A stretch of DNA of 46,762 bases from Eubacteriales bacterium (lineage in GTDB: Bacteria > Bacillota > Clostridia > Oscillospirales > CAG-272): positions 1 through 46,762 of the forward strand of contig JAZSJG010000077.1 in assembly GCA_045534215.1 (NCBI GenBank), given 5' to 3'. The number at the start of each line of letters is the position of its first letter. The stretch's first letter is position 1. Shown here piece by piece: positions 20,250 to 46,762 of the stretch. The notes beneath the pieces are model-generated. The model had not been told where the DNA came from, searched no databases, and saw only the letters and a list, made by a program, of their open reading frames with translations. The position numbers and the translations under genes were made by a program.

Positions 20250-21335
20250 TTATTCCTTAATGAAGCTTCCAAGGGATTTTAAGCGGTCACAGTATTCCTT
20301 TAGCTCACTCATCATTGCCATTCCCTCGGGTGTGCGGACGTTGCCTTCTGCTTCAACGTAAAAATAGTATTGCCACAACAGCTCTTTCATGGGTCTGCTG
20401 CGTAGAGAACGCATGTTAAATCCGTGCTTACCGATAATTTCAATAGCTTTGGCAAGCGCCCCCGCTTCGTTTCTTACGGTAAACAGAAGAATTGTATGTA
20501 CTCCCATCTCCTTTGATGAAAGATTGTTTTCAGCTCTTGTAAATACCGCAAAGCGAGTTGTGTTGCTGCGGCTTTCATTTATATTCTTCTCAAGCACCGT
20601 AAGACCAAAAATTTCCGCTGCCTCGGCACTTGCAATAGCTGCGAGAGATTTGTCCGAGCGCTCTGCTACATATTTGGCTGCCAGGGCAGTGTTGGTATAT
20701 TCTCTTTGTATAAAACCGTTGCGTTTAAGGTATTCAGCACATTGACCGAGTGCTTGCGGGTGGCTTACAACCTCTTTTATATCGGCAAGAGTAGCACCGG
20801 GTACCACGAGTAAATCCTGTGTAACTGCAAGCTCAAGCATTCCGTTTATATAAAGCTGACCGCTGAACATCAGGTCGGTAACCTGCCCAACCTCTCCGTT
20901 ATAACTGTTTTCAAGAGGTAACACTGCAGCATCACATTCTCCGTTTTCTACTGCATGGTAAGCGTCTGAAAAATAATTGTATGCTACGGTCTTCGAGCTA
21001 GGAAAAAGCTTCTTCGTAGCAATATGAGCAAAAGCTCCCTCTGTACCGCAAAAAGCAACCCGCATTCCTTCATGAAGCTTGGTTTGATAGCTTCGCGAAA
21101 TTTCCATCGTCGACTTCAAAAAGTTTACGTAGTATTCTCTTAATTCCTTCTGCTCGACAAGGGATGAATTGCGTCTTATAACCTCTTCTTCTCTTGCTGT
21201 ATCGAGAATTTTAAGTCCATGCTCTTTTTTATATTCTGCAACCTCTTTGCATGCACTCATTCTTTCAACAAAAAGCTTTGCCATTTTTCTATCTACTTCG
21301 TTAATTTTCTTTCTTGCGTTTTCAAGTGAATTCAT
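20250..21335 (-). CDS. pheA: Bifunctional chorismate mutase / prephenate dehydratase (P-protein) with ACT domain
   Basis: N-terminal AroQ-type CM helix (INEVDRKMAKLFVERM). PDT core (VAFCGTEGAFAH...ENSYNGEV...SHPQAL, TRF). C-terminal ACT domain (LLFTVRNEAGALA). Confidence 0.9.
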   Translation of the reverse strand: MNSLENARKKINEVDRKMAKLFVERMSACKEVAEYKKEHGLKILDTAREEEVIRRNSSLVEQKELREYYVNFLKSTMEISRSYQTKLHEGMRVAFCGTEGAFAHIATKKLFPSSKTVAYNYFSDAYHAVENGECDAAVLPLENSYNGEVGQVTDLMFSGQLYINGMLELAVTQDLLVVPGATLADIKEVVSHPQALGQCAEYLKRNGFIQREYTNTALAAKYVAERSDKSLAAIASAEAAEIFGLTVLEKNINESRSNTTRFAVFTRAENNLSSKEMGVHTILLFTVRNEAGALAKAIEIIGKHGFNMRSLRSRPMKELLWQYYFYVEAEGNVRTPEGMAMMSELKEYCDRLKSLGSFIKE

Positions 21336-21340
21336 ATAGC

Positions 21341-31492: not shown

Positions 31493-32536
31493 ATGAAAGT
31501 TCTTCTTGGAATGAGCGGCGGGCTTGATAGCACATATGCCGCAATAAAGCTAAAATCTCTCGGCTATGAGGTTGAGGGGGCAGTTTTAATGATGCACGGG
31601 CATACAGATATAGCTGCTGCCAAAGAAGCCGCAAGGTCGGTTGACATACCTCTGCATGTAGTAGATTGCGCAGAACTATTTGAAGAAAAGGTTGTAACAA
31701 ATTTTATCTGTGAATACTCACGCGCAAAAACACCAAATCCCTGCATAGTGTGCAACAGAGAGGTAAAATTCGCCGTCCTATTGGATATAGCTGAAAAAAT
31801 GGGATTCGATGCTATCGCCACAGGTCATTACGCAAAAATCGTTGAGATTTATTTTAACGGAGATAAAAGATTCGCTCTTGCAAGATCTAAGGATTTCAAA
31901 AAGGACCAGACATATATGCTTTGGTGTCTTCCACAGAAGGTGCTTGAAAAGCTTGTATTCCCGCTCGGCGATGATATAAAGTCGGATATTAAGGATTCCG
32001 CCAAAGAGATAGGACTCAATGCTGCTGATAAAGATGAGAGCCAAGAGATATGCTTTGTACCTGATGGCGACTATGCAGATTTTATAGAAAATCGTATGGG
32101 CTCCTCTGCTATAGGTAATTTTGTGGATAAAGAGGGAAACATACTTGGAAAGCACAAGGGGATTATACGTTATACCGTGGGGCAGCGTAAGGGACTCGGT
32201 GTCGCGGCAGGCAAACGTATGTTTGTAACCAAAATTAATCCGGATACACAAGAAATATTACTTCAGGATTCACCTGCTCTTTCAAATGTAATTGAAATAA
32301 GTGACATGGTTTTTTCTGTACCTTCGTTGTGCCCGGGAGAGAAGATGAATTTGCAGGTAAAGGTGAGATACTTAGCTCCCTTGGTTCCCTGCGAGCTCGA
32401 ATATCTTGGGCAGGGAAGAGGTAGAGTTTATCTTTCAGAACCCGCAAAATCAGTAACACCGGGTCAGTCATGCGTTTTCTATCATGGCGATGTTTTGATA
32501 TGCGGTGGCTTCACAGATGCTGCATACATGATATAA
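31493..32536 (+). CDS. mnmA: tRNA-specific 2-thiouridylase
   Basis: PP-loop LGMSGGLDS, NPCIVCN, ATGHYA, KDQTYML. Confidence 0.93.
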   Translation: MKVLLGMSGGLDSTYAAIKLKSLGYEVEGAVLMMHGHTDIAAAKEAARSVDIPLHVVDCAELFEEKVVTNFICEYSRAKTPNPCIVCNREVKFAVLLDIAEKMGFDAIATGHYAKIVEIYFNGDKRFALARSKDFKKDQTYMLWCLPQKVLEKLVFPLGDDIKSDIKDSAKEIGLNAADKDESQEICFVPDGDYADFIENRMGSSAIGNFVDKEGNILGKHKGIIRYTVGQRKGLGVAAGKRMFVTKINPDTQEILLQDSPALSNVIEISDMVFSVPSLCPGEKMNLQVKVRYLAPLVPCELEYLGQGRGRVYLSEPAKSVTPGQSCVFYHGDVLICGGFTDAAYMI

Positions 32537-32569
32537 GCTTCTATAAGGTTGAATAATCCCATATGAATT

Positions 32570-32598
32570 GGAACAGGCATTTTGTCTGTTCCTTTTTT
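32570..32598 (+). terminator. Intrinsic terminator after mnmA
   Basis: GGAACAG (32570-32576) / CTGTTCC (32586-32592), followed by TTTTTT. Confidence 0.75.
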
Positions 32599-32985
32599 AT
32601 TGAAAAATGGTAGGAAAATATCTAATTTCAGGTGAAATAAGTATAATTTAAGAAGTGAAACGGGGTGCACCAAAAGAAAACAGCTAAGAAAAATTGGAAG
32701 AATGACTATGTAGAAAAAAAGCCCATATTTATTGTGAAAATTGCACAAAAAAATTAATACGAATTCATATATGTAAACAGGTGTAATTTGAATAAAAAAA
32801 TGTTGAATTAAATTCACCATATAAAATAAAATAAATATATTAAAGTGGAATAGAAATTACGTTAATTGAAATTAAATTTTGACAAAAAAAGGTTGTGACA
32901 ACTTTTGTTTACAACTCGCAAAAACGAATGGCAAAAATAACCAGCGAAAACGCGGATTTCTTGAATTTTGCAATGTTTCTAAGTA

Positions 32986-33014
32986 TTGACTTTCAAGGAA
33001 CAGTATGTTATAAT
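32986..33014 (+). promoter_or_regulatory. Near-consensus extended -10 promoter of the seven-gene operon
   Basis: TTGACT (32986-32991), a 17-nt spacer ending in TGT, then TATAAT (33009-33014). About 100 nt of leader precede the SD (GGAGGA) and the ATG at 33120. Confidence 0.6.
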
Positions 33015-33119
33015 TTATTATACTTTAATGCCCGTACTGTGCCTTTTTTCACTTTTTGGTGTTATTTAAGTAGGTGCATTACGGCGTTTTAGCAAAGAAA
33101 AAACGGAGGATTTCAAACA

Positions 33120-36100
33120 ATGAAAAAGACCTTGTTTCAGAAAGTCATTTGCCTAATTCTTTCTGTGACAACTCTGTTCGGTATTGTCGCAGTAAGCACT
33201 GCGGCGGCAACAGACCAACCGGGCACCTCTTACGGCTCTAACAAGGATACAGCTGCAAATCTTGAACAGATGCAGGCGCTTGTCGGCGTTTCAACATACG
33301 CTGAGTATCTTGCTGAGCACGGTGATCCCAATACGGTCAATGCTGATACCGAGCTTGAGAGTATCTCCATTGATGTTGTTGCCAACATGCTTGATGACAG
33401 CGATGGAGTAGTTGCAAAGAACAGTACACTGTGTACTAATTCTTTTGCCGAGGACCAGACTAAGTGGATTACGTTCGGGGAGGAAAACTGGGATAAATCA
33501 GTTTACCTTTCTGCAGACGGTGATACTACTTGGAGCTTTAACATCCCTAATGGCAAAGAGGGTTATTACTACATCAAATTTACGTATTTCACAGCATTCA
33601 CCGATGAGAGCAGTATTACCTCTATCGAGCGTAAGCTCTTTATTGACGGCGAAGCCCCCTTTGATGAAGCAAGCTGCGTTACGTTTAACAAGTCGTGGGA
33701 ATATGTTAACTACACCGTTTCTGATCCGGTTCCTACCGATAAAGAAGACGGAGTATTTGTTACCTATGACCACAAGCCGAAGGACGGATATTATAAATAT
33801 GTAACGAAAGTTGTTGACGGCATGGAAACCGTTACTACCTATAAAATTGCCAAGGATATCAACGGTAACTCTATGGCTCCCTCGGTAGAGCAGGTTCCGG
33901 CTTGGAATACGTATTATTGCCAGGATACAACCGGATACTATACCGGTAACTTCTGCTTCTATCTGCTTAACGGTGATCATCAGATAACGCTTGCAGCACA
34001 GCGTGACCCGCTCATCATATCCGAAATCGAGCTTATCCCATATGAGCCGGGCACAAACAGTCTTCCTAAATATGAAGACGTGCTTAAGGATTATCAGGAT
34101 AAAGGGTATGTTTCCGCAGAGGGCGATGCAATAAGAATTGAAGCAGAATTCCCGGATTTCGTTTCCGACTCTTCTGTTTACGCTACCAACGACAACACTT
34201 CTGCACAGAACTATCCTTCAGCATCCAAATCCCAGCTTTACAATGTAATAGGTGAAAACAGCTATGATACTGTCGGACAGTGGGCTGCATATAAATTCTC
34301 AGTTAATTCCACCGGTCTTTACAAGCTGTCGATGCGTTATCTGCAAAATGCCTTGCAGGGTATGTATATCTGCCGTACAATCAGACTTTCAGGTGGTATA
34401 TATGGACTAAAGGATGAATACGGAACGCCATCCGTTCCTTTCGAAGAAGCATATGACGCACAGTTCCCGTATAATAAAGACTGGCAGTCATCTTACATTG
34501 GTGACAGTAACGGAAATGTTTTCGAATTTTACTTTGAAGAGGGTGTTGAGTATACGCTTTACATCGAGTGTTCACTCGGTTCACTCGGTACTCTTATTGC
34601 AGAGGTTGAGGAATCCCTCGAGATTATAAACGACTGTTACCTTAAAATACTCAAGGTTACAGGTTCTGCTCCTGACGAGTATACATATTACAAATTCGAA
34701 AAGATAATGCCTGATGTTCTTCGTAATCTCCTTATTGAGTCTATGGAGCTCGAGAGAATAAAGAAAGAGCTTCAGGAGCTTTGCGGAACTAACGGTTCAC
34801 ACATTGCAACACTTCAGACAATCTCTGACCTTCTTGACACTATGGGGTCAAACGAGGGTTGGGACATAGCGGCAAATATGTCTAACCTTAAGTCTTATCT
34901 CGGTACGCTCGGTACTTGGATTAACGATTCCAAAAAGGGCTCAATGATGATAGACTGCATTAACGTATGCCCCACAAGTATGACAAATAAGGATCTTCCT
35001 AAAAAAGATGCTAACTTTTTCAAGGCATTATGGTTTGAAATCAAATCCTTTATATATTCTTTCTCTACGAACTATGAAGCAATGGGTATGACCGAAAAGC
35101 CCAGCAAGGACACAGTAACTATCGATGTTTGGCTTGCTTCCGGTCGTGACCAGACAAACATATGGCGTTCAATGCTTGACGCTCAGGGCGGATTCACCGA
35201 TACGACGGGGTACGGCGTAGCGCTTAAGCTTGTAACGGGCGGAACACTTTTACCTTCCATTCTTTCGGGCAAAGGTCCTGACGTTTACATGGGTATCGGT
35301 GCATCCGACGTTATTAACTACGCAATTCGTGATGCGATAATTTGTCTTACCGAGGATGAACTCTTCAATACAACTTATTACACCTATAAAAATGAAAATG
35401 GCGAATATACCATAACCGAAGATGATCCGGAAAAGGTTGGTATGGAACCGATTTTCGTTTCAAATACCTATGACGACCACGTTAAGAACAACTTCGTTCA
35501 AGCAGCTCTTGATACGTTGACTCTTCTTGGAAAATCTTATGGTGTACCTCAAACAATGGCATTCCCGATGATGTTCTACAGAATGGACGTTCTTGCAGAG
35601 CTCAAGGAGGATGTTCCTGAGACATGGGAAGAGCTTCTTAAGATGCTTCCGACTCTTCAGAGCAACAACATGTCAATGGGTGTCAGCTACGCCCTTGCTT
35701 ACAACGCACTTCTTTATCAGAGCGGCGGGAGCATGTGGAAATATATCGGCGACGATGAATATGCAGGTGCAAAGGTTGACCTCGATTCGAATACCGCACT
35801 TACCGCGTTCGAATTTGTATGCCGTCTTTACACAGACTACTCATTCCCTGTATCTTACGACGCAGCAAACCGTTTCAGAACGGGTGAAATGCCTCTGCTT
35901 ATAGGAAGCTATGAGGATCTTTACAACAAGCTTGTCGTTTATGCTACCGAAATTGAAGGCCTTTGGAGCATATGTCCTCTTCCAGGAACAAAGCTTGCGG
36001 ATGGCACAATCAATTATGATACAATCTGTACTGTAAGCGCAACAGTAATGCTCCATGGATGCGACGATATGTTACCTGCTTGGGAGTATATCCAGTGGCA

Positions 36101-36467
36101 AACCTCTGCTAAGGTACAGGCAGATTACGGTAACAAGATGGTTGCCCTTATCGGTCCTTCGGCAAAATACGAAACGGCTAATATAAACGCAATCAAAGAC
36201 CTTTCTTGGACGGCAAGTGAAAGAGCTGCTATTGAAGACCAAATTAAGCACATGTCTTCTATCGTTAACTATCCCGGCTCTTACTACATTACAAGATATA
36301 TACAGTTCGCTTTTCTTGATGCGGTAAACGATGACGCTGATGCAGTTGATGCACTCAACGGTTATATCGATGCAATTAACGCGGAAATTACCCGTAAACG
36401 TAGCGAATTTAAGCTTAAAACACTAGCGGCAGACGAAGAGCCGCCGGAAAAAGAAACCAATCAGTAA
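33120..36467 (+). CDS. Giant secreted family-1 solute-binding protein fused to two N-terminal CBM-like beta-sandwich modules (1115 aa)
   Basis: Signal peptide with an AxA-type site (STAAA/TD) and no lipobox Cys. CBM-like segments at about aa 80-312 (...IISEIELIPYEP) and aa 335-500 (AIRIEAEFPDF...YTLYIEC). Helical linker. SBP_bac_1-like C-terminal half from about aa 660 (TIDVWLASG..., GKGPDVYMG). Confidence 0.7.
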   Translation: MKKTLFQKVICLILSVTTLFGIVAVSTAAATDQPGTSYGSNKDTAANLEQMQALVGVSTYAEYLAEHGDPNTVNADTELESISIDVVANMLDDSDGVVAKNSTLCTNSFAEDQTKWITFGEENWDKSVYLSADGDTTWSFNIPNGKEGYYYIKFTYFTAFTDESSITSIERKLFIDGEAPFDEASCVTFNKSWEYVNYTVSDPVPTDKEDGVFVTYDHKPKDGYYKYVTKVVDGMETVTTYKIAKDINGNSMAPSVEQVPAWNTYYCQDTTGYYTGNFCFYLLNGDHQITLAAQRDPLIISEIELIPYEPGTNSLPKYEDVLKDYQDKGYVSAEGDAIRIEAEFPDFVSDSSVYATNDNTSAQNYPSASKSQLYNVIGENSYDTVGQWAAYKFSVNSTGLYKLSMRYLQNALQGMYICRTIRLSGGIYGLKDEYGTPSVPFEEAYDAQFPYNKDWQSSYIGDSNGNVFEFYFEEGVEYTLYIECSLGSLGTLIAEVEESLEIINDCYLKILKVTGSAPDEYTYYKFEKIMPDVLRNLLIESMELERIKKELQELCGTNGSHIATLQTISDLLDTMGSNEGWDIAANMSNLKSYLGTLGTWINDSKKGSMMIDCINVCPTSMTNKDLPKKDANFFKALWFEIKSFIYSFSTNYEAMGMTEKPSKDTVTIDVWLASGRDQTNIWRSMLDAQGGFTDTTGYGVALKLVTGGTLLPSILSGKGPDVYMGIGASDVINYAIRDAIICLTEDELFNTTYYTYKNENGEYTITEDDPEKVGMEPIFVSNTYDDHVKNNFVQAALDTLTLLGKSYGVPQTMAFPMMFYRMDVLAELKEDVPETWEELLKMLPTLQSNNMSMGVSYALAYNALLYQSGGSMWKYIGDDEYAGAKVDLDSNTALTAFEFVCRLYTDYSFPVSYDAANRFRTGEMPLLIGSYEDLYNKLVVYATEIEGLWSICPLPGTKLADGTINYDTICTVSATVMLHGCDDMLPAWEYIQWQTSAKVQADYGNKMVALIGPSAKYETANINAIKDLSWTASERAAIEDQIKHMSSIVNYPGSYYITRYIQFAFLDAVNDDADAVDALNGYIDAINAEITRKRSEFKLKTLAADEEPPEKETNQ

Positions 36468-36485
36468 CATTAAGGAGATTATGAA

Positions 36486-37436
36486 ATGTCAAAGACAAAA
36501 GTGAATACTAAACGTCCGACGCAACGCTCCGAGATGTCAAAGATGCAGTGGACGTGGAAGGAAATGAAGAAGAATAAAACCGCTTACTTTATGGTAGCAC
36601 CATTCCTTCTTCTCTTCATTATCTTCACCGTTCTGCCGGTATTTCTTTCTATCATTCTGAGCCTTACGAACTTTAACATGTTACAGATGCCCGGATGGGA
36701 GGGCCTCAACAACTACACGCGTCTTTTCCTCGATGATGAAATTTTCATTCTCGCGTGCCAGAACACCTTAATATTCGCATCGGTAACCGGACCCGTTTCA
36801 TACCTGCTTTCGCTGTTGATTGCATGGTTCATTAATGAACTTCCGCCTAAAATCCGTGCGGTTGTTACTCTTATCTTCTACGCTCCCTCAATTTCAGGTC
36901 AGGTTTATCTTATATGGAAGACTTTGTTCTCCTCCGACGCTTACGGTTGGGCGAACGCAACGTTGATGGACCTTGGAATTATAAGTACCCCGATTCTATG
37001 GTTCGACGATGCGAATTACGTAATGCCGCTTTGTATTATAGTTGCATTGTGGACATCTCTTGGTACAGCGTTCCTGTCTTTCATCGCCGGCTTCCAGACA
37101 ATTGACCGTTCAATGTATGAGGCGGCAGCTGTTGACGGAATTAAAAACCGTTGGCAGGAGCTTTGGTATATAACTCTTCCCACAATGCGCCCTCAGATGA
37201 TGTTCGGTGCCGTTCTTGCTATAACCAACTCATTCGGCTTCGGTTCTGTTGTTGATGCTTTGTGCGGATTCCCCTCGGTTGACTATGCGGCGCACACAAT
37301 TATGCACCACTTGAACGACTATGGCGGCCAAAGATATGAAATCGGTTATTCTTCCGCAATAGCGGTTGTGCTCTTCGTAATTATGTTCTCATGTAACATA
37401 ATTATCAAGAAGTTGCTATCGAAGGTAGGTGAGTAG
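36486..37436 (+). CDS. ABC importer permease, MalF/UgpA-like (CUT1)
   Basis: Six predicted TM helices. EAA loop YEAAAVDGIKNRWQELWYITLPTMRP. SD AAGGAG 8 nt upstream. Confidence 0.88.
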   Translation: MSKTKVNTKRPTQRSEMSKMQWTWKEMKKNKTAYFMVAPFLLLFIIFTVLPVFLSIILSLTNFNMLQMPGWEGLNNYTRLFLDDEIFILACQNTLIFASVTGPVSYLLSLLIAWFINELPPKIRAVVTLIFYAPSISGQVYLIWKTLFSSDAYGWANATLMDLGIISTPILWFDDANYVMPLCIIVALWTSLGTAFLSFIAGFQTIDRSMYEAAAVDGIKNRWQELWYITLPTMRPQMMFGAVLAITNSFGFGSVVDALCGFPSVDYAAHTIMHHLNDYGGQRYEIGYSSAIAVVLFVIMFSCNIIIKKLLSKVGE

Positions 37437-37438
37437 TT

Positions 37439-38314
37439 ATGGCTAAAAAGTTAAGAACAAGAAATCACCGCGTCGTACTTAACCGTTCGGCAGGTGGAGA
37501 TACGGGCATAACTATCGTACTTACAATCTTCGGCTTGTTTATGTTCTTGCCTATGTATTACGTTGTAATTCAGGCATTAAAGCCACTTGACGAATTATTT
37601 ATGTTCCCGCCTCGTTTCTACGTTATCAATCCTACCTTTGATAACTTCACAGACCTTGTAAGTCTTATGAGCGACTCATGGGTTCCTTTCTCAAGGTACA
37701 TATTCAATACCGTATTCCTTACGATATGCGGTACAGTAGGTAACCTTATTTTCGCATCAATGGCGGCATATTCCTTGGCAAAACTCCGTTTCCCCGGAAG
37801 AAATGCCATATTCCAGATTATAGTTATGTCGCTTATGTTCCACTCAACAGTTAACCAGGTAACTCACTTCATTATCCTTTCTTCTTTCGGTTGGATAGAT
37901 ACTTATCTTTCGATTATAGTTCCGTCTATGGCAACTACGATGGGTCTTTACCTTATGAAGCAGTTTATGGAAACATCAGTTCCCAATACGGTACTTGAAT
38001 CCGCCCGTCTTGACGGTGCAAGTGAATTCAGAACATATTTAACAATCGCAATGCCGATGGTTAAGCCCGCATGGCTTACACTTATTATCGAGTGCTTTAA
38101 GTCACTGTGGAACTCCGGTTCGTCCATATACATTCATTCCGAACAGTTGAAAACCTTTAACTATGCTATCAACCAGATAGTCACCGGTGGTATTGCACGT
38201 TCCGGTGCCGGTGCGGCAGCAACGGTTGTAATGATGATAGTTCCTATTCTCGTATTCGTGTTCAACCAGAGCCAGATTATTGAAACGATGGGCTCTTCGG
38301 GTATGAAGGATTAA
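37439..38314 (+). CDS. ABC importer permease, MalG/UgpE-like (CUT1)
   Basis: EAA loop LESARLDGASEFRTYLTIAMPMVKP. The start is 2 nt after the upstream stop. Confidence 0.88.
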   Translation: MAKKLRTRNHRVVLNRSAGGDTGITIVLTIFGLFMFLPMYYVVIQALKPLDELFMFPPRFYVINPTFDNFTDLVSLMSDSWVPFSRYIFNTVFLTICGTVGNLIFASMAAYSLAKLRFPGRNAIFQIIVMSLMFHSTVNQVTHFIILSSFGWIDTYLSIIVPSMATTMGLYLMKQFMETSVPNTVLESARLDGASEFRTYLTIAMPMVKPAWLTLIIECFKSLWNSGSSIYIHSEQLKTFNYAINQIVTGGIARSGAGAAATVVMMIVPILVFVFNQSQIIETMGSSGMKD

Positions 38315-38324
38315 GGAGGCAAGT

Positions 38325-40502
38325 ATGAAGAAATTTACAAAAGTATTGATATTTGCGCTCGTTGCAGTTATGTTGTTTGCTTCGGTTCAGGTTTTCGCAT
38401 TTGACCCGTATCAAACATATACCTATTCAATTGACGGCGAGCCCCTTAAATCTCCCTCAGCATACACGGCATCGGAAGTCTTGAACACAATGGACATAGG
38501 TCTTAACACTTTTTCTCCCGATTTGCCAAAATTCAGCTATGCATCAGATATAGTTACGGACAGTGATGCAAATGTTTATATAGCTGATAAAGGAAATAAC
38601 CGTATAGTAGTACTTGATAAGTATTACTCGGTTAAGGACGTAATTGACAACTATGTTGATGAATACAATGTACGTCAGACATTTAATGCACCTCAGGGTG
38701 TATTTGTAACCGACCCGACTAAAACAGCTGACGGTTCAAGCTTTGTTTATATCTGTGATACAGGTAACCAGCGTATAGTAGTTTTTGATAGAGATTACGA
38801 ATATGTAAGAACTATTGAAAAGCCGGAAACAAACCTTATCACAAGCGAAATGTTTAAGCCAATGGCAATAGCTGTTGATATTTACGGAAGAATTTTCGTA
38901 ACCTCACAAGCTTGTTACTCGGGTGTTATCGTTCTTTCAGAAACAGGTGACTTCACCGGATTTATCGGAGCACAGGAAACTTCGCTTTCCTTGATAGACC
39001 TTATCTGGAGAAACTTCCAATCTAAAGAGGACAGAATTTCATCTGTAAAAACTCTTGCATATCCCTACAATAACATTACAGTTGACGATGACGGATTCGT
39101 TTACGTAACCGTTACTCCCAACGATTTGCCGGGACGTAAATCCCAGCTTGCTTCAATAACAAGCAAAGCAGCAACAAACTCTCCGGTAAAGAAGCTTAAC
39201 TCCGCAGGTAAGGAGATTATGAAGCGTAACGGATTCTTTGATCCCGGTGGAGAAGTAGGCGTAAGACTTCCTGAAGAGGTATCAACTATCATTGACGTCG
39301 CGGTAGGACCGGAGGGATCTTGGAGTATTCTCGACTCCTCTCGTTCCCGTATATTCACCTACGACCAGAACGGCAACCTTCTCTTCGCGTTTGGCGGAAA
39401 GGGTGACCAGCTCGGTAACGGTGAAAGCTTTGTAGGTATGACTTACCACACAGTAAACGGCGTCAGCTACCTTTTGTTGCTTGACAGCGCCGCAGAGGGT
39501 TACAAGCTCACAGTTTATTCACCCACTGCTTACTGTGATACTATTATCGACGCACTTCGTAACCAGAATGAGCACAATTATGATGTGTCCATTCAGTTCT
39601 GGCAGAAGCTTCTCACACAGAATAACAACTTCGACCTTGCTTATATAGGTATAGGTAAAGCTCTTTATCAGCAGGGCAAGTATGAGGACGCTCAGGAGTA
39701 TCTCTCCTATGCTTATGAAACAGACTACCATGACAAAGCGTTTATGGAAATTCGTAAACAGGCAATTCAGAAGTATCTGCTTCTTATGGTAATAGCGGTA
39801 GTTGCAGTAGTTATTCTTATCGTTAAATTCTTGGGTTATGCTAAGAAAAAGAATAAAGCAGGTGCTCTTAAGGTCGGCAAAAAGACCTATTGGGAGGAGC
39901 TGCTGTATGCATTCCACTTAGTATTCCACCCGTTTGACGGCTTCTGGGATCTTAAGCATGAGAAGCGTGGCTCTGTAAGAGCAGCATTTACTATTATCGG
40001 AATAACGATTTTGGCGTTCTTCTATCAGGCAATCGGTCAAGGTTATTCCTTTAACCCAAGAGGAGATTACTCTACAGTATTCATTCAGGTTCTTGCTATT
40101 GCAGTTCCTGTTATACTCTGGTGTCTTGGTAACTGGTGCCTTACAACATTGTTTGACGGAGAAGGAAGCTTTAAGGATATATTCATTGCAACAGGATATG
40201 CTCTTGCACCCCTTCCCGTATTCGTAATTCTTTCAACAATTCTTACAAACGTTATGACGGCTTCTGAGGGCTCAATGGTAAATCTTCTCGTAACATTCGG
40301 TTACGTTTGGGTTGCATTGCTTCTGTTCTTCGGAACTCTCGTAACACATGACTACACGCTCGGCAAAAACTTCATAACAATTCTCGGAACAATTGTAGCA
40401 ATGGTCGTTATTATGTTCGTTGTAATTCTGTTCTCGAGTCTTGTGGCAAAAATTGTTACTTTCGTCTTGACTATTATAAGCGAAATTGCAAACAGAGCAT
40501 AG
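38325..40502 (+). CDS. Membrane protein: signal peptide, six-bladed NHL-repeat beta-propeller, TPR-like motif, TM helix, C-terminal Yip1-type 5-TM domain (725 aa)
   Basis: NHL blades such as NVYIADKGNNRIVVLD, FVYICDTGNQRIVVFD, GRIFVTSQ and SILDSSRSRIFTYDQNGNLLFAFGG. TPR-like GIGKALYQQGKYEDAQEYLSYAY. TM helix at about aa 484-505. Yip1-like block LFDGEGSFKDIFIATGYALAPLP with 5 hydrophobic helices. Confidence 0.7.
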   Translation: MKKFTKVLIFALVAVMLFASVQVFAFDPYQTYTYSIDGEPLKSPSAYTASEVLNTMDIGLNTFSPDLPKFSYASDIVTDSDANVYIADKGNNRIVVLDKYYSVKDVIDNYVDEYNVRQTFNAPQGVFVTDPTKTADGSSFVYICDTGNQRIVVFDRDYEYVRTIEKPETNLITSEMFKPMAIAVDIYGRIFVTSQACYSGVIVLSETGDFTGFIGAQETSLSLIDLIWRNFQSKEDRISSVKTLAYPYNNITVDDDGFVYVTVTPNDLPGRKSQLASITSKAATNSPVKKLNSAGKEIMKRNGFFDPGGEVGVRLPEEVSTIIDVAVGPEGSWSILDSSRSRIFTYDQNGNLLFAFGGKGDQLGNGESFVGMTYHTVNGVSYLLLLDSAAEGYKLTVYSPTAYCDTIIDALRNQNEHNYDVSIQFWQKLLTQNNNFDLAYIGIGKALYQQGKYEDAQEYLSYAYETDYHDKAFMEIRKQAIQKYLLLMVIAVVAVVILIVKFLGYAKKKNKAGALKVGKKTYWEELLYAFHLVFHPFDGFWDLKHEKRGSVRAAFTIIGITILAFFYQAIGQGYSFNPRGDYSTVFIQVLAIAVPVILWCLGNWCLTTLFDGEGSFKDIFIATGYALAPLPVFVILSTILTNVMTASEGSMVNLLVTFGYVWVALLLFFGTLVTHDYTLGKNFITILGTIVAMVVIMFVVILFSSLVAKIVTFVLTIISEIANRA

Positions 40503-40519
40503 AGCAGGGAGGTAGAAAT

Positions 40520-43500
40520 ATGAAATTTAAAAAGTTAATATCGGCTGCTCTCTCTGTTGTAATGATTTTTACAGCGTTTGTTGCAGTGTTTCCTGTTAAT
40601 GCATTCGCCGCTCACTCATCTTCAAGTACGGCGTCTGGAGCTACAGTGCCGGAAGGCATCACCGAATCCGATTTGACCTATCAGGAGCTTCTTGAGTACC
40701 TTGGCGTTGCAAAGGAAACGGAAAATGACCCGAACAGTTATATCAACTATAACTTTAATTCGGCAGCAGAAATGCTTGCTTATGAGCTTAAGCTTGGACA
40801 TCTTTACTGTGTTAGCTCATCTGCAAAGCAGTATACACTTTACGTTAACAAGTACACGGGATTCGTTTACTACGTTAACAACCTTACAGGTCAGATACTT
40901 ACAAGTAACCCGACAAATCCCGGTTACAGATCACAAAACGGCTCTCTTATAGTTCACTCAGAAACACGCGCAGACCTGATGAGTCAGATAACTGTTTCCT
41001 TCTTCGAAACCGCAAACCCAACAAGCTCGGATATTTACGATAGCTTTACTGAAGCGGCTCAGAGAGGACAGATTAGTGTTTCTCCGATTTCCAACGGTAT
41101 TCGTGTAAGTTATGTCCTTGGTGATACTACCGCAAGATATCTTCTTCCCGGTATTATTACTGCAGAAAGCTTTGAGTCAAACATTCTTCGTCCTTTCATT
41201 GAATACTATGAATCCTTGATCGTTCAGTATTGTTCTTCATATTACCCCGATCAGAATCTTACATTCTTTGATAACGAGGATTATAAACCGTATGATGATT
41301 ACGGTTACATTAATCAGCTTTCCGGAACAAAAAACAGAGGTGTTCGCTATTACCTAGCTAACACAATGAACCTTTATTCCGATGTTTTGAGTTACAAATC
41401 TGCGGAATATAAGCACCTTGAAGAAGTATATGGAGACCTTATTTATTTCCTCGGTGCATATAACCTTTATAATCCGCAGGCGTATATCGACAAGGGTGAA
41501 AATTATAAGACTCAGCTTGAGGATATGTACAAAAAGTACCCCATCACCAAAACAGGTGTATCAGTTTACGTATATGCCCAGTCTGATAATGATGCAACAA
41601 AGGAAACTTATGCAGATATAATCAAAAAGTACTGCACAGACTATACGTTTTCAATGATGTATGCTGATGAAAAGGAGTGTGGATACGTTGATACATCTAC
41701 TCAAAAGCCTCTCTTCAGATGCGCTCTTGAATATACTCTTAGCAGTGACGGAACTCTTTGTGTAAGTCTTCCTGCATCTTCAATTACCTTTGATGAAACC
41801 GTTTATACGCTTGATTCAATTACTCCGCTTATGTATTTCGGATGCGGCGATATGACTAACAGCGGTTATATCTTCTATCCTGATGGTAGCGGAACAGTTG
41901 TAAACTTCAAAGACTTCTATGATGAATCGATAAATCTTAAGACAGCAATTAACCTTTCCTCTAAAATATTTGGAAGCGATTTTGCATATTCAAATATTAC
42001 AGGTGCTCACCGTCAGCAAATAACAATGCCTGTTTACGGTATAGTTAACAAGGTTAACGCATCTAATCTTTCTGCAGAAATTACAGGAAAAGATACTGTC
42101 ACTAACGGTTATTTTGCAATTGTAGAGGAGGGCTCTTCTGTAGCTACAATCGGATTTAAGTCCGGTGGTGCTACGCACAGATTTGCAACAGCATTTACCT
42201 CTTACAACCCATATCCATCCGATGTTTACGACCTTTCCGAAACAATTTCGGTTGGTTCTCTTGGAACATATACCATGGTATCCAAGGCAAAATATACAGC
42301 TTCCTATACTACAAGATTCGTTATGCTTACAGATAATAGCATCGGCGATAAGGTTTACGGTGAGGGTAAATATTATGAATCCTCTTACAACGGAATGGCT
42401 GCATGCTACCGTAACAAGCTCAAGAATGATGGCGTTCTCAGTGCTCTTGAGATTGTAAACGAGGACCTCCCGCTTTACATTGAAGTTCTTGGTTCTATGG
42501 ATATCTTGGATAAGTTTTTGACTTTCCCCATAACCAAAAATATTCCTCTTACAAAGTTCGAGGACGTAATCGAAATTTACAATCAGCTTTCCAATTGCAG
42601 CAGCTACGTTGAAAGTGAAATAGCAAGATACGAAGAGTTGCTGAAGAATGAAAAGAATGACGTTCAGCGAGCTCAGTACCAGAATCAAATCAATACGTTT
42701 GAGCAGCTCAACGGAAAGATTGAAGATAGCATTACAAATATTAATATAAGACTTACCGGTTTTGCGAATGGCGGTATGTATGCTACTTATCCTGTAAAGG
42801 TGAAATGGCAGAAGGCAGTTGGAGGCAAATCCGGACTTAAGAAGCTTATTGCGGCAACTGATACTGATGCCGGTGAAAGCTTTAAGATTTTCCCTGAGTT
42901 CGATTTTATGTATATCAATCATACAGCAATGTTTGACGGTATCAGAACAAAGGGCAATGTTTCCAGAATGGTTGACAACCGTTATGCTTCAAGACAGGAA
43001 TACAATGAGATAGTTCAGATGTTTGAATCCGCTTTCTCTCTTGTAATTAATCCCGAGGCATTACCTAAGCTTTACAAGAAATTTAATAAGCAGTACAGTA
43101 AGTACGGTTTAACAACAATTTCAGCTTCAACTCTTGGTTCGGCGCTTAACTCTAACTTTGATGAGGAAGCTCCCGTTAACCGCGAGGAAGCAATGGGCTA
43201 TGTATGTGATGTTCTTGATGCTATGGTAAATAAGAATAATTACGAGGTTATGATAGATACAGGTAATATCTATGCTGTTGAGTATGCGACACACATTCTT
43301 AATGCAGCAACAGATTCAAGCCATTTCAGATTCTCTTCGTATACAATTCCGTTCACAGGTCTTGTTCTCCATAGTTACGTAAATTATACCGGTACTCCGA
43401 TAAACTATGCCGGATCTATTCAATATGAGATTCTTCGTTCCATCGAAAACGGAGCAGCACCTTATTTCATTGTCTGCTTCCGCAACACATCTTATATGAA

Positions 43501-44236
43501 GGACGATATGGTTCTTAACCAGTACTACGGTGTTGACTATCAGAACTGGTATGCACAAATCCTTACAACTTACACCACTATTAACTCTATTATAGGCGAG
43601 CTTCAAAGCTATGAGCTCGTAAAGCATTCTGTTGTAATTGCAGAACGTTCTATAGATTCTAAAGAGAGTGCAGAAATACTTAAAAAGCTCACAGAAGAGC
43701 TCCTCGTTTCTGTTGATAATCAAATTGCTGCAGCTATAGATGTAGCACTTGATGAACTCAGAGCGGCAGCAGCATATGACACAATGCTCAAGTTCAATCT
43801 TACAGATGCAGATAAAGCAGCTCTTCTTAATCAGTTTGCTTTGGAACTCAATGTTGATGCACAGTATCTTACAGATTCCGGATTCGTTAAGGAGTTTGAT
43901 AAGATAGTTGCAAAATATGAGAGTGAGTATTCTGCAGAAAACGCAGAAAACATTCACAGTATCAGCTTCAATTCCTTCGTATATGAAACAAATTATTCCT
44001 ATCTGACGGATTCGTTCGCATTCGATGAAAATTACGTATATACGGATTTCACTTGCGACAACGGAAACGTAGTTATGGTAACATATAAGAAGGGTGATGA
44101 CGTAAAACAATTTATTCTCAACTACAATAATTACTCGGTTGAGGTAAGACTTGACAAAGATAATATTTGTACTGTCGATGCTTACGGATTTTATCCCGTT
44201 ATCAATAAAAACGCAAATGAGGAGGTGGGACAATGA
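40520..44236 (+). CDS. Giant secreted protein of unknown function (1238 aa); probably the DUF5696 family (assignment from memory, unverified)
   Basis: Signal peptide ...FPVNAFA/AHSSSS. No TM helix, no LPXTG, no motif of a characterised enzyme family that I can name. SD GGGAGG upstream. The stop overlaps the next start (ATGA at 44233-44236). Coding status is secure; function is unknown. Confidence 0.6.
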   Translation: MKFKKLISAALSVVMIFTAFVAVFPVNAFAAHSSSSTASGATVPEGITESDLTYQELLEYLGVAKETENDPNSYINYNFNSAAEMLAYELKLGHLYCVSSSAKQYTLYVNKYTGFVYYVNNLTGQILTSNPTNPGYRSQNGSLIVHSETRADLMSQITVSFFETANPTSSDIYDSFTEAAQRGQISVSPISNGIRVSYVLGDTTARYLLPGIITAESFESNILRPFIEYYESLIVQYCSSYYPDQNLTFFDNEDYKPYDDYGYINQLSGTKNRGVRYYLANTMNLYSDVLSYKSAEYKHLEEVYGDLIYFLGAYNLYNPQAYIDKGENYKTQLEDMYKKYPITKTGVSVYVYAQSDNDATKETYADIIKKYCTDYTFSMMYADEKECGYVDTSTQKPLFRCALEYTLSSDGTLCVSLPASSITFDETVYTLDSITPLMYFGCGDMTNSGYIFYPDGSGTVVNFKDFYDESINLKTAINLSSKIFGSDFAYSNITGAHRQQITMPVYGIVNKVNASNLSAEITGKDTVTNGYFAIVEEGSSVATIGFKSGGATHRFATAFTSYNPYPSDVYDLSETISVGSLGTYTMVSKAKYTASYTTRFVMLTDNSIGDKVYGEGKYYESSYNGMAACYRNKLKNDGVLSALEIVNEDLPLYIEVLGSMDILDKFLTFPITKNIPLTKFEDVIEIYNQLSNCSSYVESEIARYEELLKNEKNDVQRAQYQNQINTFEQLNGKIEDSITNINIRLTGFANGGMYATYPVKVKWQKAVGGKSGLKKLIAATDTDAGESFKIFPEFDFMYINHTAMFDGIRTKGNVSRMVDNRYASRQEYNEIVQMFESAFSLVINPEALPKLYKKFNKQYSKYGLTTISASTLGSALNSNFDEEAPVNREEAMGYVCDVLDAMVNKNNYEVMIDTGNIYAVEYATHILNAATDSSHFRFSSYTIPFTGLVLHSYVNYTGTPINYAGSIQYEILRSIENGAAPYFIVCFRNTSYMKDDMVLNQYYGVDYQNWYAQILTTYTTINSIIGELQSYELVKHSVVIAERSIDSKESAEILKKLTEELLVSVDNQIAAAIDVALDELRAAAAYDTMLKFNLTDADKAALLNQFALELNVDAQYLTDSGFVKEFDKIVAKYESEYSAENAENIHSISFNSFVYETNYSYLTDSFAFDENYVYTDFTCDNGNVVMVTYKKGDDVKQFILNYNNYSVEVRLDKDNICTVDAYGFYPVINKNANEEVGQ

Positions 44237-45192
44237 GTAGTAAATCCTTGAAAATCAAGAAAAAAACAGCTTCCTTGGATGCAAGAAAAGCAAGATCCGG
44301 TTATGTATTCGTTGCGCCCTTCATCCTTGGTATAATATTCATTTATATACCAATTCTTCTCGACTCAATCTGGTTCAGCTTTAACAAGCTGAACACAGAC
44401 CACTGGGATGTGGTAAACGGTGTTCCTGACCCGATATTTGAATCAGTCGGTTTTGAATATTATAAGGCAATATTTGATGACCCCGACTTTTTAACAAAAC
44501 TTCTTGCCGGACTTCAACAGCTTATATTCGAGGTCCCTGCTGTTATCATTTTCTCGCTGTTTATTGCGGTTGTTCTTAACCAAAAAATGCTTGGTAGAGC
44601 AGTTTTCCGTGCAATATTCTTCGTTCCGGTTATTATTTCAACCGGTATTATGGAATCTATCAACTACAGCGATATTATGTCCGATGAAGCACAGGGTGGT
44701 ATCCAGGACGGTTCCGGAGAATCAGCATCTAACGATATTATCTCGGTTCTTGACGTCGAAATTCTATTCAGCTCAATGAAGGTTGGTGCAGAGCTCGTTA
44801 CCTACGTTGTACAGCTCGTTAATGACGTATACGATATCGTAAACTACTCCGGTGTACAGATGCTTATATTCCTTGCCGGACTTCAGTCAATTTCACCCGC
44901 AATCTATGAGGCGTGTCAAATTGAAGGCGCAACGGCATGGGAAACCTTCTGGAAAATTACCTTCCCGATGATTTCTCCTATGATACTTGTAAATGCGGTG
45001 TATTCGGTAATAAATGCGTTTACCCGTACCACCAACCCGATGATGCTCTTTATCGATTCAAAGTATATTGCAGCCGGAGGACAGCACTTGGCAACAGCGA
45101 TGTCTTGGCTATACTTCTTAATTGTTATGCTTATCATTGGCGCGGTAGTAGGTATCGTTTCTACATTTATCTTCTATCAGAGAAGAGATTAA
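44233..45192 (+). CDS. ABC importer permease, MalF-like (second pair)
   Basis: EAA loop YEACQIEGATAWETFWKITFPMISP. Long extracytoplasmic loops after TM1 and TM3. Confidence 0.85.
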   Translation: MSSKSLKIKKKTASLDARKARSGYVFVAPFILGIIFIYIPILLDSIWFSFNKLNTDHWDVVNGVPDPIFESVGFEYYKAIFDDPDFLTKLLAGLQQLIFEVPAVIIFSLFIAVVLNQKMLGRAVFRAIFFVPVIISTGIMESINYSDIMSDEAQGGIQDGSGESASNDIISVLDVEILFSSMKVGAELVTYVVQLVNDVYDIVNYSGVQMLIFLAGLQSISPAIYEACQIEGATAWETFWKITFPMISPMILVNAVYSVINAFTRTTNPMMLFIDSKYIAAGGQHLATAMSWLYFLIVMLIIGAVVGIVSTFIFYQRRD

Positions 45193-45204
45193 GGAGGTAG
45201 CAAC

Positions 45205-46254
45205 TTGGAAACTAAAACTGTAATCAGAAAAGAAACAAAAAATAAGCTCCGTGTTGACTACGAAGGTAAACTCTCTTTCAAAGAAAGATTTATGCAGAAG
45301 CTTAAGTCTTCAAATACTTGGATAAAGGTCGTAATTAACATATTCCGATTCATTCTCATGCTCGGTGTTTCTTATGTTATTATTTATCCATTCTTCACGA
45401 AGATTGCCGGTTCATTTATGTCTAAAGAGGACTTGATTGACCCGACAGTAGCGCTTATTCCCAAACACTTTACCGGTGAAATTTATAAGTATATAGTAAT
45501 TGATAACCACTATTTGGAAGCAGTTCTTAACACCTTGCTCCTTTCATTGATTTGTGCTTTGATACAGACTTTTATTGCCTGCCTTATCGGTTACGGACTT
45601 GCAAAGTTCAAATTCAAGGGTAATAGCTTGGTAATGCTCGTTGTTGTCTTTACTATGATTATTCCTCACTCGACTTTGAAGCTCGCGCTTCACGAGCACT
45701 TCGACAATTTCGACATTCTTACTGTCGTAGCTTGGAACTATAAGGGACCGCTTGAACTTATCTTCGGTTCAATCCGTCTTACAGATACCTTCTGGCCTCT
45801 TATTCTTCTTTCTATCTTCGGTCTTGCTTTTAAGAACGGCTTGTATATTTACCTTATGCGCCAGTTCTTTAAGGGCGTTCCCGATGAGCTTGAAGAGTCA
45901 GCATACGTTGACGGTTCAGGTGTGTTCCGTACGTTCTTGCAGATTATTCTTCCGCTTTCCGTACCTATGATGATAACAATATTCCTGTTCTCATTCTCAT
46001 GGCAGTGGACTGATGACTTCTACACCAACGTATTCTTCACACTCTCACCCGGTGATGAGGGAATGATATATCTTATGCCTGATATACTTTCTATCCCAGC
46101 TTCGCTGAGAACTAACTATGCCGGCCAGACTCTGTATTACAACGTAATTCAGAATACTGCGGGTATGATGGTAATAGCTCCCTTGATTATCCTTTATCTC
46201 TTCTGTCAGAGATATCTTGTTCAAGGTATTGAGCGTTCCGGTTTTGTTGGTTAA
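45205..46254 (+). CDS. ABC importer permease, MalG-like (second pair), TTG start
   Basis: EAA loop EESAYVDGSGVFRTFLQIILPLSVP. TTG at 45205, 7 nt after the SD AAGGAGG (45191-45197). Confidence 0.85.
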   Translation: METKTVIRKETKNKLRVDYEGKLSFKERFMQKLKSSNTWIKVVINIFRFILMLGVSYVIIYPFFTKIAGSFMSKEDLIDPTVALIPKHFTGEIYKYIVIDNHYLEAVLNTLLLSLICALIQTFIACLIGYGLAKFKFKGNSLVMLVVVFTMIIPHSTLKLALHEHFDNFDILTVVAWNYKGPLELIFGSIRLTDTFWPLILLSIFGLAFKNGLYIYLMRQFFKGVPDELEESAYVDGSGVFRTFLQIILPLSVPMMITIFLFSFSWQWTDDFYTNVFFTLSPGDEGMIYLMPDILSIPASLRTNYAGQTLYYNVIQNTAGMMVIAPLIILYLFCQRYLVQGIERSGFVG

Positions 46255-46265: not shown

Positions 46266-46291
46266 AAGGGTGCAAATTTATTTGCACCCTT
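46266..46291 (+). terminator. Intrinsic terminator closing the seven-gene operon
   Basis: AAGGGTGCAAA (46266-46276) / TTTGCACCCTT (46281-46291), followed by AAATTTTTA. Confidence 0.7.
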
Positions 46292-46302: not shown

Positions 46303-46331
46303 TTGACAGCAATCATCTTTAGCTGTATAAT
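46303..46331 (+). promoter_or_regulatory. Consensus extended -10 promoter of mscS
   Basis: TTGACA (46303-46308), a 17-nt spacer ending in TG, then TATAAT (46326-46331). Confidence 0.65.
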
Positions 46332-46358
46332 ATAATAAAAAAGAAAGGATAAATAAAA

Positions 46359-46762
46359 ATGGACTGGAAAGAAAAATTAAGCAATTTAATTGACACCGTT
46401 ATATCTTGGACAACCACTTCGGGACTTAGATTGATTATCGCGGTTATTATACTTTTCGTATCTTTTAAGATAATAAATGGACTGTCAAAGAAAATTGAAA
46501 AAAGAGCTCTTAAAAGGAACGTTGATAAAACTATTGTAAAAACACTTTCGTACATAGGCAAGATTACTCTTAAATGCGTAATAGCAATATCCCTTGTCGG
46601 ATATGTGGGTATAGATACAAGCGGAATTGCAGCGCTTGTGACATCTCTCGGTGTGTGCGCAGGTCTTGCTGTAAACGGCGCACTCTCAAATCTTGCAGGT
46701 GGTGTGCTCATTATTATAACACGTCCGTTTAGAGTTGACGATTACATTGAAGCACAAGGATA
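46359..46762 (+). CDS. mscS: Small-conductance mechanosensitive channel (MscS family), N-terminal part (open to the window end)
   Basis: Absent from the ORF track. My translation from ATG 46359 reads MDWKEKLSNLIDTVISWTTTSGLRLIIAVIILFVSFKIING...GIAALVTSLGVCAGLAVNGALSNLAGGVLIIITRPFRVDDYIEAQG, which matches the MscS TM3 / beta-domain signature. Confidence 0.8.
   Translation, partial: MDWKEKLSNLIDTVISWTTTSGLRLIIAVIILFVSFKIINGLSKKIEKRALKRNVDKTIVKTLSYIGKITLKCVIAISLVGYVGIDTSGIAALVTSLGVCAGLAVNGALSNLAGGVLIIITRPFRVDDYIEAQG

Follow-up and report, generated by a model that had tools for sequence, protein, structure and literature searches.

Glycan uptake by gut Firmicutes is far less understood than the Sus paradigm of Bacteroidetes. 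The closest described systems for the locus presented here are the CUT1 ATP-binding cassette (ABC) importers, such as MalEFGK2 and the MsmX-dependent importers of Bacillus subtilis, and the Gram-positive polysaccharide utilisation loci (gpPULs), which are defined as containing at minimum an enzyme, a transporter and a regulator (Sheridan et al. 2016, PMC5320581). A further precedent is YknW, which belongs to the Yip1 family and modulates the assembly of the Bacillus ABC transporter YknXYZ (PMC4887032). We analysed a seven-gene operon, p1 to p7, at positions 33120-46254 (plus strand) of contig JAZSJG010000077.1 of an Eubacteriales bacterium (assembly GCA_045534215.1). The complete contig of 46,762 nucleotides (nt) is called the window below.

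The operon represents a seven-gene cassette of the Bacillota that is ancient and strictly conserved and that probably encodes a composite carbohydrate ABC import machine, with p4 as organiser and a non-hydrolytic p5. Its first gene, p1 (33120-36467; 1115 amino acids, aa), encodes a giant substrate-binding protein, and is followed by the MalF/UgpA-like permease p2 (36486-37436; 316 aa) and the MalG/UgpE-like permease p3 (37439-38314; 291 aa), together translocator 1. The next gene, p4 (38325-40502; 725 aa), encodes a membrane protein with NHL, tetratricopeptide repeat (TPR) and Yip1 regions, the putative organiser, and p5 (40520-44236; 1238 aa) a secreted long-form DUF5696 protein that resembles glycoside hydrolase (GH) family GH129. 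Translocator 2 consists of the MalF-like p6 (44233-45192; 319 aa) and the MalG-like p7 (45205-46254; 349 aa, TTG start). Intergenic gaps measure 18, 2, 10, 17 and 12 nt, p5 and p6 share a 4-nt ATGA overlap, and a GGAGG-type ribosome-binding site precedes each of the seven open reading frames (ORFs). An earlier reading made from the sequence only had described these seven packed co-directional ORFs, and all seven were found on the plus strand at the positions it gave. Its statement of their domain content was likewise borne out by Pfam and NCBIfam: four BPD_transp_1 domains, NHL with TPR and Yip1, DUF5696 and a CUT1-type binding domain.

Conservation of the complete arrangement carries most weight in this interpretation. 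A clade-alignment scan of species-representative genomes shows that 515 of these encode a relative; the loci studied are the best 80 of them together with five exact look-ups (85 loci). All of the best 80 are metagenome-assembled genomes (MAGs) of uncultured gut Clostridia, obtained from ruminant hindgut, Hadza and other human samples. When the 85 loci are searched with the window proteins (tblastn), p1 to p7 are found in the same order and on the same strand in 60/60 loci that span the region. Two further loci end at a contig edge after p6, and none is rearranged. Most clade loci lie directly downstream of (iscS)-nifU-mnmA and their downstream flanks differ. No other glycan-degrading genes or regulators are present in the clade loci, and ordinary binding proteins are found neither in the window operon nor in three Pfam-annotated relatives. 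One locus, L030 (CAVEOF010000005.1), is labelled 'Coriobacteriaceae bacterium', but its iscS-nifU-p1..p7 locus matches that of the Clostridia MAGs, with identities in a similar range; it is likely mis-binned or mislabelled.

Differences are pronounced when comparing the individual genes. Median identities, paired over 24 loci, amount to 88% for p3, 88% for NifU and 86% for p2, followed by 68% for p7, 66% for p6 and 62% for p4, and finally by 55% for p1, 53% for MnmA and 44% for p5. Translocator 1 is under unusually strong constraint and evolves as slowly as NifU. Across the clade, the p2/p3 segment (36486-38314) is 80-93% identical, against 44-58% for MnmA and 37-58% for the DUF5696 protein. 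In the window lineage the cassette is a vertically inherited, stand-alone core operon. A mobile island was considered as well and rejected, because the chromosomal site is fixed and genes of the same operon evolve at very different rates.

The cassette is not confined to this clade. A tblastn search of annotated plasmids with the core of p5 identifies Butyrivibrio fibrisolvens D1 and Paenibacillus cellulosilyticus as carriers of DUF5696 genes (24% identity), and both species hold all seven components in the same order, as one-to-one best matches. Identities of the orthologues in Butyrivibrio and Paenibacillus, respectively, are 29% and 25% for p1 (full length), 56% and 40% for p2, 56% and 34% for p3, 24% and 24% for p5, 39% and 31% for p6, and 38% and 27% for p7; for p4 they are 30% (NHL) plus 41% (Yip1) in Butyrivibrio and 28% in Paenibacillus. 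We further found the cassette in Roseburia, Gorillibacterium, Acetatifactor, P. aceti and two metagenomic contigs (L173 and L174). The sequence-only reading had stated that neighbourhoods of Yip1, DUF5696 and permeases recur in Clostridia and Paenibacillus; in fact the whole seven-gene order is conserved in Bacilli and Clostridia, in the 60 spanning loci as well as in these other lineages.

The surroundings of the cassette vary between these lineages. The Roseburia copy is accompanied by LacI and two GH53 genes, and the Gorillibacterium copy by LacI, GH26, a GDSL esterase and a GH2 mannosidase. In Butyrivibrio and Acetatifactor the neighbours are a histidine kinase and GH43, with a response regulator too in Butyrivibrio. 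Contig L174 combines GH43, GH35, LacI and GH42, and contig L173 has GntR and GH4. Because it is constant among such variable, glycan-specific neighbours, the cassette is best described as a generic capture/import module rather than as a substrate-specific enzyme set. Most cassette loci outside the clade add one or two ordinary binding proteins of 440-630 aa, and the two in Butyrivibrio carry lipoboxes (AAGC, ISGC). On contig L173 (ENA ERZ25039574 contig_70776, positions 1-9400) the genes upstream of the cassette are split into many short ORFs, which are fragments of a giant binding protein and a permease; most likely this reflects frameshift errors of long reads and not real pseudogenes.

All four permeases score above the Pfam gathering cut-off for BPD_transp_1 (E 8e-10 for p2, 2e-8 for p3, 6e-11 for p6 and 7e-12 for p7), so both pairs have the two transmembrane subunits of a CUT1 importer. 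Among NCBIfam models, p2 and p6 match UgpA/GlcT/MalF best, and p3 and p7 match UgpE/GlcU/MalG best (p2 against UgpA, E 5e-16; p3 against UgpE, E 1e-22). With 28% identity between p2 and p6 and likewise 28% between p3 and p7, the two translocators are, as judged from these alignments, ancient paralogous permease pairs. Sugar transport by p1-p7 is most likely, as predicted from the CUT1-type components. The sequence-only reading had seen two symmetric modules, each of one exoprotein and one permease pair. This picture did not survive: no similarity is detected between p1 and p5, p1 would serve the first pair, and the second pair normally has extra, ordinary binding proteins in other lineages. 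A duplicated module was therefore rejected, since p1 and p5 are unrelated; the permease pairs, moreover, are only 28% identical. The same reading had stated that the operon has neither an ATPase nor a regulator, and this stands: neither the operon nor the other window ORFs scanned contain an ABC ATPase or a sugar regulator. The gene directly upstream of the Paenibacillus cellulosilyticus cassette is ugpC, for an MsmX-type ATPase, and we infer that a shared MsmX/UgpC-type ATPase is supplied in trans.

The binding protein p1 is the one extracellular protein with a MalE-fold binding domain for the two permease pairs. Its AlphaFold2 (AF2) model (pLDDT 81.6) shows an N-terminal hydrophobic helix, two beta-sandwiches (residues ~80-310 and 335-485), a four-helix stalk (489-604) and, in the C-terminal third (~660-1100), a complete MalE-like binding domain of the CUT1 type. 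The latter resembles solved oligosaccharide-binding proteins with Foldseek template-modelling (TM) scores of 0.75-0.82, and at sequence level p1 matches MalE3 in the PDB (E 1e-5). Even at E up to 10, Pfam yields no match to the first 630 residues when p1 itself is searched. Sub-threshold matches to CBM_35/Golvesin_C recur in both sandwich regions of 6/6 p1 orthologues from other lineages, which is weak but consistent evidence that the sandwiches could be carbohydrate-binding modules (CBMs) of a CBM35-like type. The sequence-only reading called the giant proteins unanchored, which is uncertain for p1. Its first 21 residues have a conservation of 0.71, against 0.54 in the linker that follows, and because they are as conserved as the folded domains, the N-terminal helix may stay in place as a membrane anchor instead of being cleaved off like a signal peptide. 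A lipobox is absent from p1, and giant binding proteins never have one.

The nature of p5 was approached through both fold and sequence. It belongs to DUF5696 (PF18952), for which it scores 381.6 bits where the cut-off is 25.6 (E 9e-114); two stretches make up the match, divided by a clade-specific coiled-coil insertion. The AF2 model of residues 41-1238 (pLDDT 87.7, pTM 0.81) has the GH129 fold, a beta-sandwich plus a GH13-like (beta/alpha)8 barrel, to which clade-specific helical and coiled-coil insertions and a C-terminal extension are added. Foldseek gives as best match the 3,6-anhydro-D-galactosidase ZgGH129 (5opq/8rzk; E 1.5e-19, TM on target 0.63), with the alpha-N-acetylgalactosaminidase NagBb (5wz*) at ~E 1e-17. 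The top set of 5opq, 8rzk and 5wzn spans E 1.5e-19 to 1e-15 at a TM on target of ~0.6, and GH31, GH36, GH13 and GH66 barrels rank after GH129.

At sequence level, phmmer finds no PDB sequence with either p5 or a 71-sequence clade profile, and when the clade profile is aligned to NagBb with hhalign the probability is 1.9%. Both ZgGH129 (E 9e-5) and NagBb (E 2e-3) are reached among PDB sequences when the profile is built from 58 short-form DUF5696 proteins. In the opposite direction, a 148-residue fragment of NagBb, run with tblastn against 7.3 Gb of plasmids, has as its single match the Paenibacillus DUF5696 gene (E 8e-4). With full-length NagBb orthologues recovered from human-gut metagenome contigs, hhalign aligns the short-form DUF5696 profile to GH129 over 513 columns (probability 95.5%, E 1.4e-8). 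Judged by these profile comparisons, DUF5696 is a genuine but very distant relative of GH129, and p5 is a member of DUF5696 and, by any sequence criterion, not of GH129. A global hhalign of DUF5696 with E. coli YicI (GH31), meant for transfer of catalytic residues, showed that these families are too distant. At 50% identity the DUF5696 family falls into 6,709 clusters when matches with E up to 1e-3 are counted, of which 4,035 have E up to 1e-30. Lengths form a continuum, with representatives of 950-1400 aa and one outlier (P0495) of 1871 aa.

Catalytic positions were transferred from the two characterised structures. In NagBb, the second Asp of GIVLDCAYLDVF has the number 435 and the Glu of GILTSSEEV the number 478. 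In ZgGH129, D486 is identified as catalytic by the PDB title 'Michaelis complex of ZgGH129 D486N', and since the numbering offset between both proteins is constant at 52, D486 lies opposite NagBb D435. In the short-form alignment D435 falls three residues off the only conserved Asp of the segment (LYS-D), and in the clade alignment it falls into a different column; p5 has non-acidic residues at both columns, Asn879 and Ser868. An Asp aligned to the GH129 nucleophile (NagBb D435 / ZgGH129 D486) is thus missing from p5, in a region where the alignment is of low confidence. The acid/base E478 of NagBb cannot be mapped reliably, and the column closest to it, p5 D913, varies even among short forms. 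The sequence-only reading had seen no enzyme assignable to a GH family, which holds in part: p5 lacks the Asp aligned to the nucleophile and neither profile nor structure searches put it in a well-characterised enzyme family within a described utilisation locus, but DUF5696 is a distant homologue of GH129.

Column counts over 119 window-clade members and 121 other DUF5696 proteins reveal a clear contrast. Asn occupies position 879 in 117/119 clade members, where 118/121 others have Asp, and at position 940 the clade has Ser in 119/119 and the others have Asp in 116/121, whereas D455, D487 and E976 are universal across the clade and the other proteins. The replacements form a series when 150 representatives of the whole family are considered together with p5 and two plasmid proteins. 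Short forms (n=82, median 864 aa) have Asp at both 879 and 940; intermediate forms (n=24, median 1,048 aa) retain Asp at 879 (LNSDFDE) and have Ser at 940; long forms of the window type (n=36, median 1,215 aa) have Asn at 879 (LNSNFDE) and Ser at 940. Retaining glycosidases that have been inactivated classically show such an exchange of Asp for Asn while the rest of the motif is unchanged, and the progression from Asp/Asp through Asp/Ser to Asn/Ser suggests that an enzyme became a binding subunit. Neither this series nor so extreme a constraint on one permease pair would have been expected. Short-form cassettes (L086 15925-19355; L088, L089, L091 and L174) are usually flanked by ordinary binding proteins.

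Several points weigh against an import machine with a non-hydrolytic p5. The mapping of the nucleophile to Asn879 sits in a low-confidence stretch of a remote alignment and carries a 3-residue offset in one of the two alignments, and the catalytic pair of NagBb, reportedly D435 and E478 (Sato et al. 2017), is supported only indirectly, by the PDB title and the numbering offset. Even the short-form DUF5696 proteins are putative enzymes, and in the clade Asp881 and Asp996, each present in 110/119 members, could rebuild the active site. On the side of transport, the window encodes neither a cognate binding protein for translocator 2 nor the MalK/MsmX-type ATPase that belongs to a CUT1 importer.

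It might accordingly be argued that p5 is an active enzyme and founds a new GH family related to GH129, with an active site that is re-tooled in the long forms, and that the operon is an ordinary capture-cleave-import locus. We regard this as possible, if somewhat doubtful. Asp881 or Asp996 might take over, or a substrate-assisted mechanism might operate via N879-F-D881; both of these clade-specific residues arise exactly where the other Asp are lost, and many polar residues of the barrel loops are invariant in the clade, in addition to the three acidic residues (E976, D455 and D487) that are universal in the family. Intermediate forms hold Ser940 yet keep Asp879, so position 940 seems dispensable. 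Nevertheless, the decisive exchange takes place within an unchanged LNS[D/N]FDE, and the same substitution trapped the Michaelis complex of ZgGH129 according to the PDB title. Neither Asp881 nor Asp996 is invariant, 7/119 and 9/119 members being non-acidic there, and nothing else in the clade loci degrades glycans or regulates. Because Asn replaces the putative nucleophile Asp, p5 would most likely hold glycan without hydrolysing it, and we lean towards a non-hydrolytic p5 in the window clade as a provisional assignment. Of the capture, processing and uptake of glycan proposed by the sequence-only reading, capture and uptake by an apparatus built on two CUT1-type translocators are supported, whereas processing by p5 is doubtful here.

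The membrane protein p4 starts with a signal peptide, followed by an extracellular NHL beta-propeller (residues ~30-400), TPR (404-480), a transmembrane helix (485-503), a cytoplasmic segment (506-548) and, according to the hydropathy profile, a Yip1 domain with five transmembrane helices (549-702). Pfam assigns Yip1 (E 5e-14) and NHL (E 7e-8); the Yip1 match (PF04893) reaches 52.9 bits against a cut-off of 28.6 and covers profile positions 2-172 of 173. In the PDB, p4 matches TPR proteins and NHL propellers, among them that of the PknD sensor. Conservation within p4 is highest, at 0.89, in the cytoplasmic segment FHPFDGFWDLKxEKRGS (window 39840-39968), which p4 has in common with the stand-alone YIP1 protein of Butyrivibrio and which suggests an intracellular partner. 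NHL and YIP1 are separate adjacent genes in Butyrivibrio, Roseburia, Acetatifactor and Gorillibacterium, and are fused in Paenibacillus and the window. By analogy with YknW, a precedent that the sequence-only reading had invoked and that proved real (PMC4887032), p4 probably assembles or organises the complex, as YknW does for YknXYZ; for p4 the strict gene linkage points to such a role. That p4 would also tether the two giant proteins, as the sequence-only reading proposed, is a hypothesis.

A different emphasis would make p4 primarily a sensor or gate, whose ectodomain detects glycan and whose cytoplasmic segment modulates the translocators or the shared ATPase. This is compatible with a composite importer, and we hold it to be unlikely. 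The conservation of the segment that precedes Yip1, and its occurrence in Butyrivibrio YIP1, would fit, as would the use of NHL propellers as extracellular sensor domains (PknD being an example) and the absence of a dedicated regulator from the window operon. Still, p4 has no recognisable signalling output domain, several lineages make its ectodomain and Yip1 part as two polypeptides, an arrangement that fits transmembrane signalling poorly, and the sole characterised Yip1 precedent concerns assembly (PMC4887032). An organising role for p4 remains the reading that we follow.

Control signals bracket the operon, as the sequence-only reading had indicated. A sigma-70-type promoter lies at 32986-33014 on the plus strand (TTGACT, 17 nt, TG-extended TATAAT; it scores 11/12), and an intrinsic terminator at 46266-46291 on the same strand, 12 nt past the p7 stop codon (11-bp stem with 5 GC pairs and a T-rich tail). 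The upstream mnmA is closed by its own terminator at 32570-32592. Promoter-like and terminator-like sites are as numerous in the region as expected from shuffled sequence, so the consensus scan by itself is no evidence. Conservation was assessed by aligning the 260 nt that lie upstream of p1 in 60 related loci: the most conserved upstream columns are the -35 and extended -10 hexamers, and TTGACW-N16-18-TAWAAT is kept in register in 57/60. A second element, TTGTTTACAAC (32905-32915, plus strand), has column conservation of 0.8-0.9 in the 60 aligned upstream regions and lies ~70 nt 5' of the -35 hexamer. It is a possible candidate for a regulator-binding site, in an operon without a regulator gene. 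An Rfam scan of the whole window found no riboswitch, leader or other RNA element.

The intergenic region between mnmA and p1 (32537-33119, ~580 nt) is unusually long and AT-rich. A 112-aa minus-strand ORF overlaps it (32482-32820); it has no family match and is probably no gene. Directly past the operon terminator, at 46303-46331 on the plus strand, there is a perfect 12/12 sigma-70 consensus promoter (TTGACA-17-TATAAT), which faces the window end across a 130-aa minus-strand ORF (46319-46711) without Pfam match.

A regulator-free operon with a conserved near-consensus promoter could also serve a purpose other than foraging on dietary or host polysaccharides, namely recycling of the cell's own envelope glycopolymers or housekeeping uptake. 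The cassette occupies a fixed chromosomal position beside housekeeping genes, it is present in every sampled member of the clade (at least 515 species-level genomes), and its translocator 1 is constrained like NifU. In all other lineages examined, however, the cassette is surrounded by sugar-responsive regulators and by hydrolases of plant glycans, BPD_transp_1 systems that use MalE-like binding proteins import nutrients, and nothing in the window links the operon to genes for wall synthesis, which makes such a role in the window lineage quite improbable. The weakest alternative, a chance juxtaposition of two unrelated ABC importers and two unrelated surface proteins, can appeal to permease pairs of only 28% identity, to the unrelated p1 and p5 and, as a lead only, to published loci that may count such arrangements as '2 x ABC', but it is close to excluded by synteny, the order being invariant in 60/60 loci and kept across Bacilli and Clostridia at 24-56% identity while the flanks change completely, with gaps of just 2-18 nt and one overlap.

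Returning to the composite import machine, its parts could cooperate as follows. Tethered by its N-terminal helix, p1 would capture glycan via the CBM35-like domains, and its MalE-like lobe would hand the oligosaccharide to p2/p3. The second channel would be formed by p6/p7, which extra lipoprotein binding proteins may serve in other lineages. Assembly would be organised by p4 via its Yip1 membrane domain and its TPR/propeller ectodomain. The DUF5696 protein would process the bound glycan in its short forms or merely hold it in the window clade, and a shared MsmX/UgpC-type ATPase would energise both channels. A bolder version, to which we give only tentative credence, is that the cassette forms a stable holocomplex for glycan import at the cell surface, in which Yip1 bridges the two translocators and the long-form p5 is an enzyme turned non-hydrolytic glycan receptor that feeds translocator 2 in place of the lipoprotein binding proteins. 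If true, an ABC importer would here have a substrate-binding subunit that descends from an enzyme, fixed as a core and constitutive trait in a clade of >500 uncultured gut species, and the holocomplex would be the Gram-positive counterpart of the Bacteroidota utilisome.

Summarizing, the cassette is a discrete and conserved module of seven components. DUF5696 gains a fold and a family relationship (GH129-related), the giant binding protein gains an architecture, and bacterial Yip1 becomes tied to an importer. Because the operon is core, apparently constitutive and includes a permease pair constrained like NifU, it is likely central to the feeding of abundant hindgut organisms. Cultured carriers (Roseburia, Butyrivibrio and Paenibacillus) make the cassette experimentally tractable. 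The searched literature names 'DUF5696' or 'PF18952' in no paper, in agreement with the sequence-only reading, which knew of no functional study, and it contains nothing relevant on Yip1 combined with sugar ABC transport.

The remainder of the window is ordinary chromosome with metG, tatD, eno, malQ, a shikimate/aromatic amino-acid cluster, trkAH and iscS-nifU-mnmA. The shikimate/aromatic amino-acid cluster is complete (13290-22534) and several of its genes overlap. It includes a 412-aa minus-strand ORF (16841-18079) with a shikimate dehydrogenase N-terminal domain and a shikimate kinase domain, an apparent AroE-AroK fusion.

Comparison with known systems shows where the cassette is familiar and where it differs. 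With the SusCD utilisome of Bacteroidota it has functional analogy alone, in that glycan-binding proteins and an enzyme-like subunit are placed around an import channel. There is no homology: the cassette has ATP-driven ABC translocators of the cytoplasmic membrane, as opposed to a TonB-dependent outer-membrane barrel, and its complex is a predicted one. Like YknWXYZ, the cassette couples a Yip1-family membrane protein genetically to an ABC transporter. However, YknYZ is a MacB-type exporter with a membrane-fusion protein whereas the partner here is a type I importer, and the Yip1 domain of the cassette is fused or adjacent to a large NHL/TPR ectodomain. GH129 shares with DUF5696 the beta-sandwich and GH13-like barrel fold and a family-level sequence homology that is detectable. 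Identity is nonetheless only ~10-18%, p5 has large insertions and extensions, p5 is secreted whereas NagBb is cytosolic, and the residue aligned to the nucleophile is Asn or Ser in the window clade.

Resemblance to gpPULs (PMC5320581) lies in the cassette being the transport core of loci with GHs and regulators in Roseburia, Butyrivibrio, Acetatifactor and Gorillibacterium. The cassette loci of Roseburia, Gorillibacterium and Acetatifactor combine enzyme, transporter and regulator and are gpPULs by definition; the window operon is not, because it has no regulator and no recognised polysaccharide-degrading enzyme. The gpPUL literature has not singled out the cassette. Sheridan et al. (PMC5320581) do list Roseburia gpPULs with '2 x ABC', which may be unrecognised cassette loci and serve as a lead only. 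The CUT1 importers come closest, with a MalF/MalG-like BPD_transp_1 heterodimer, a MalE-fold binding protein and, as we infer, a shared ATPase. In contrast to these, the cassette has two permease pairs in one conserved unit, a binding protein of ~1,100 aa that includes a helical stalk besides its two CBM35-like domains, and NHL-TPR-Yip1 and GH129-like DUF5696 partners that occur in no characterised CUT1 system. The overall function, ABC glycan import, is thus within expectations, and what is new is the conserved double translocator, the giant CBM-bearing binding protein and the two obligatory partners.

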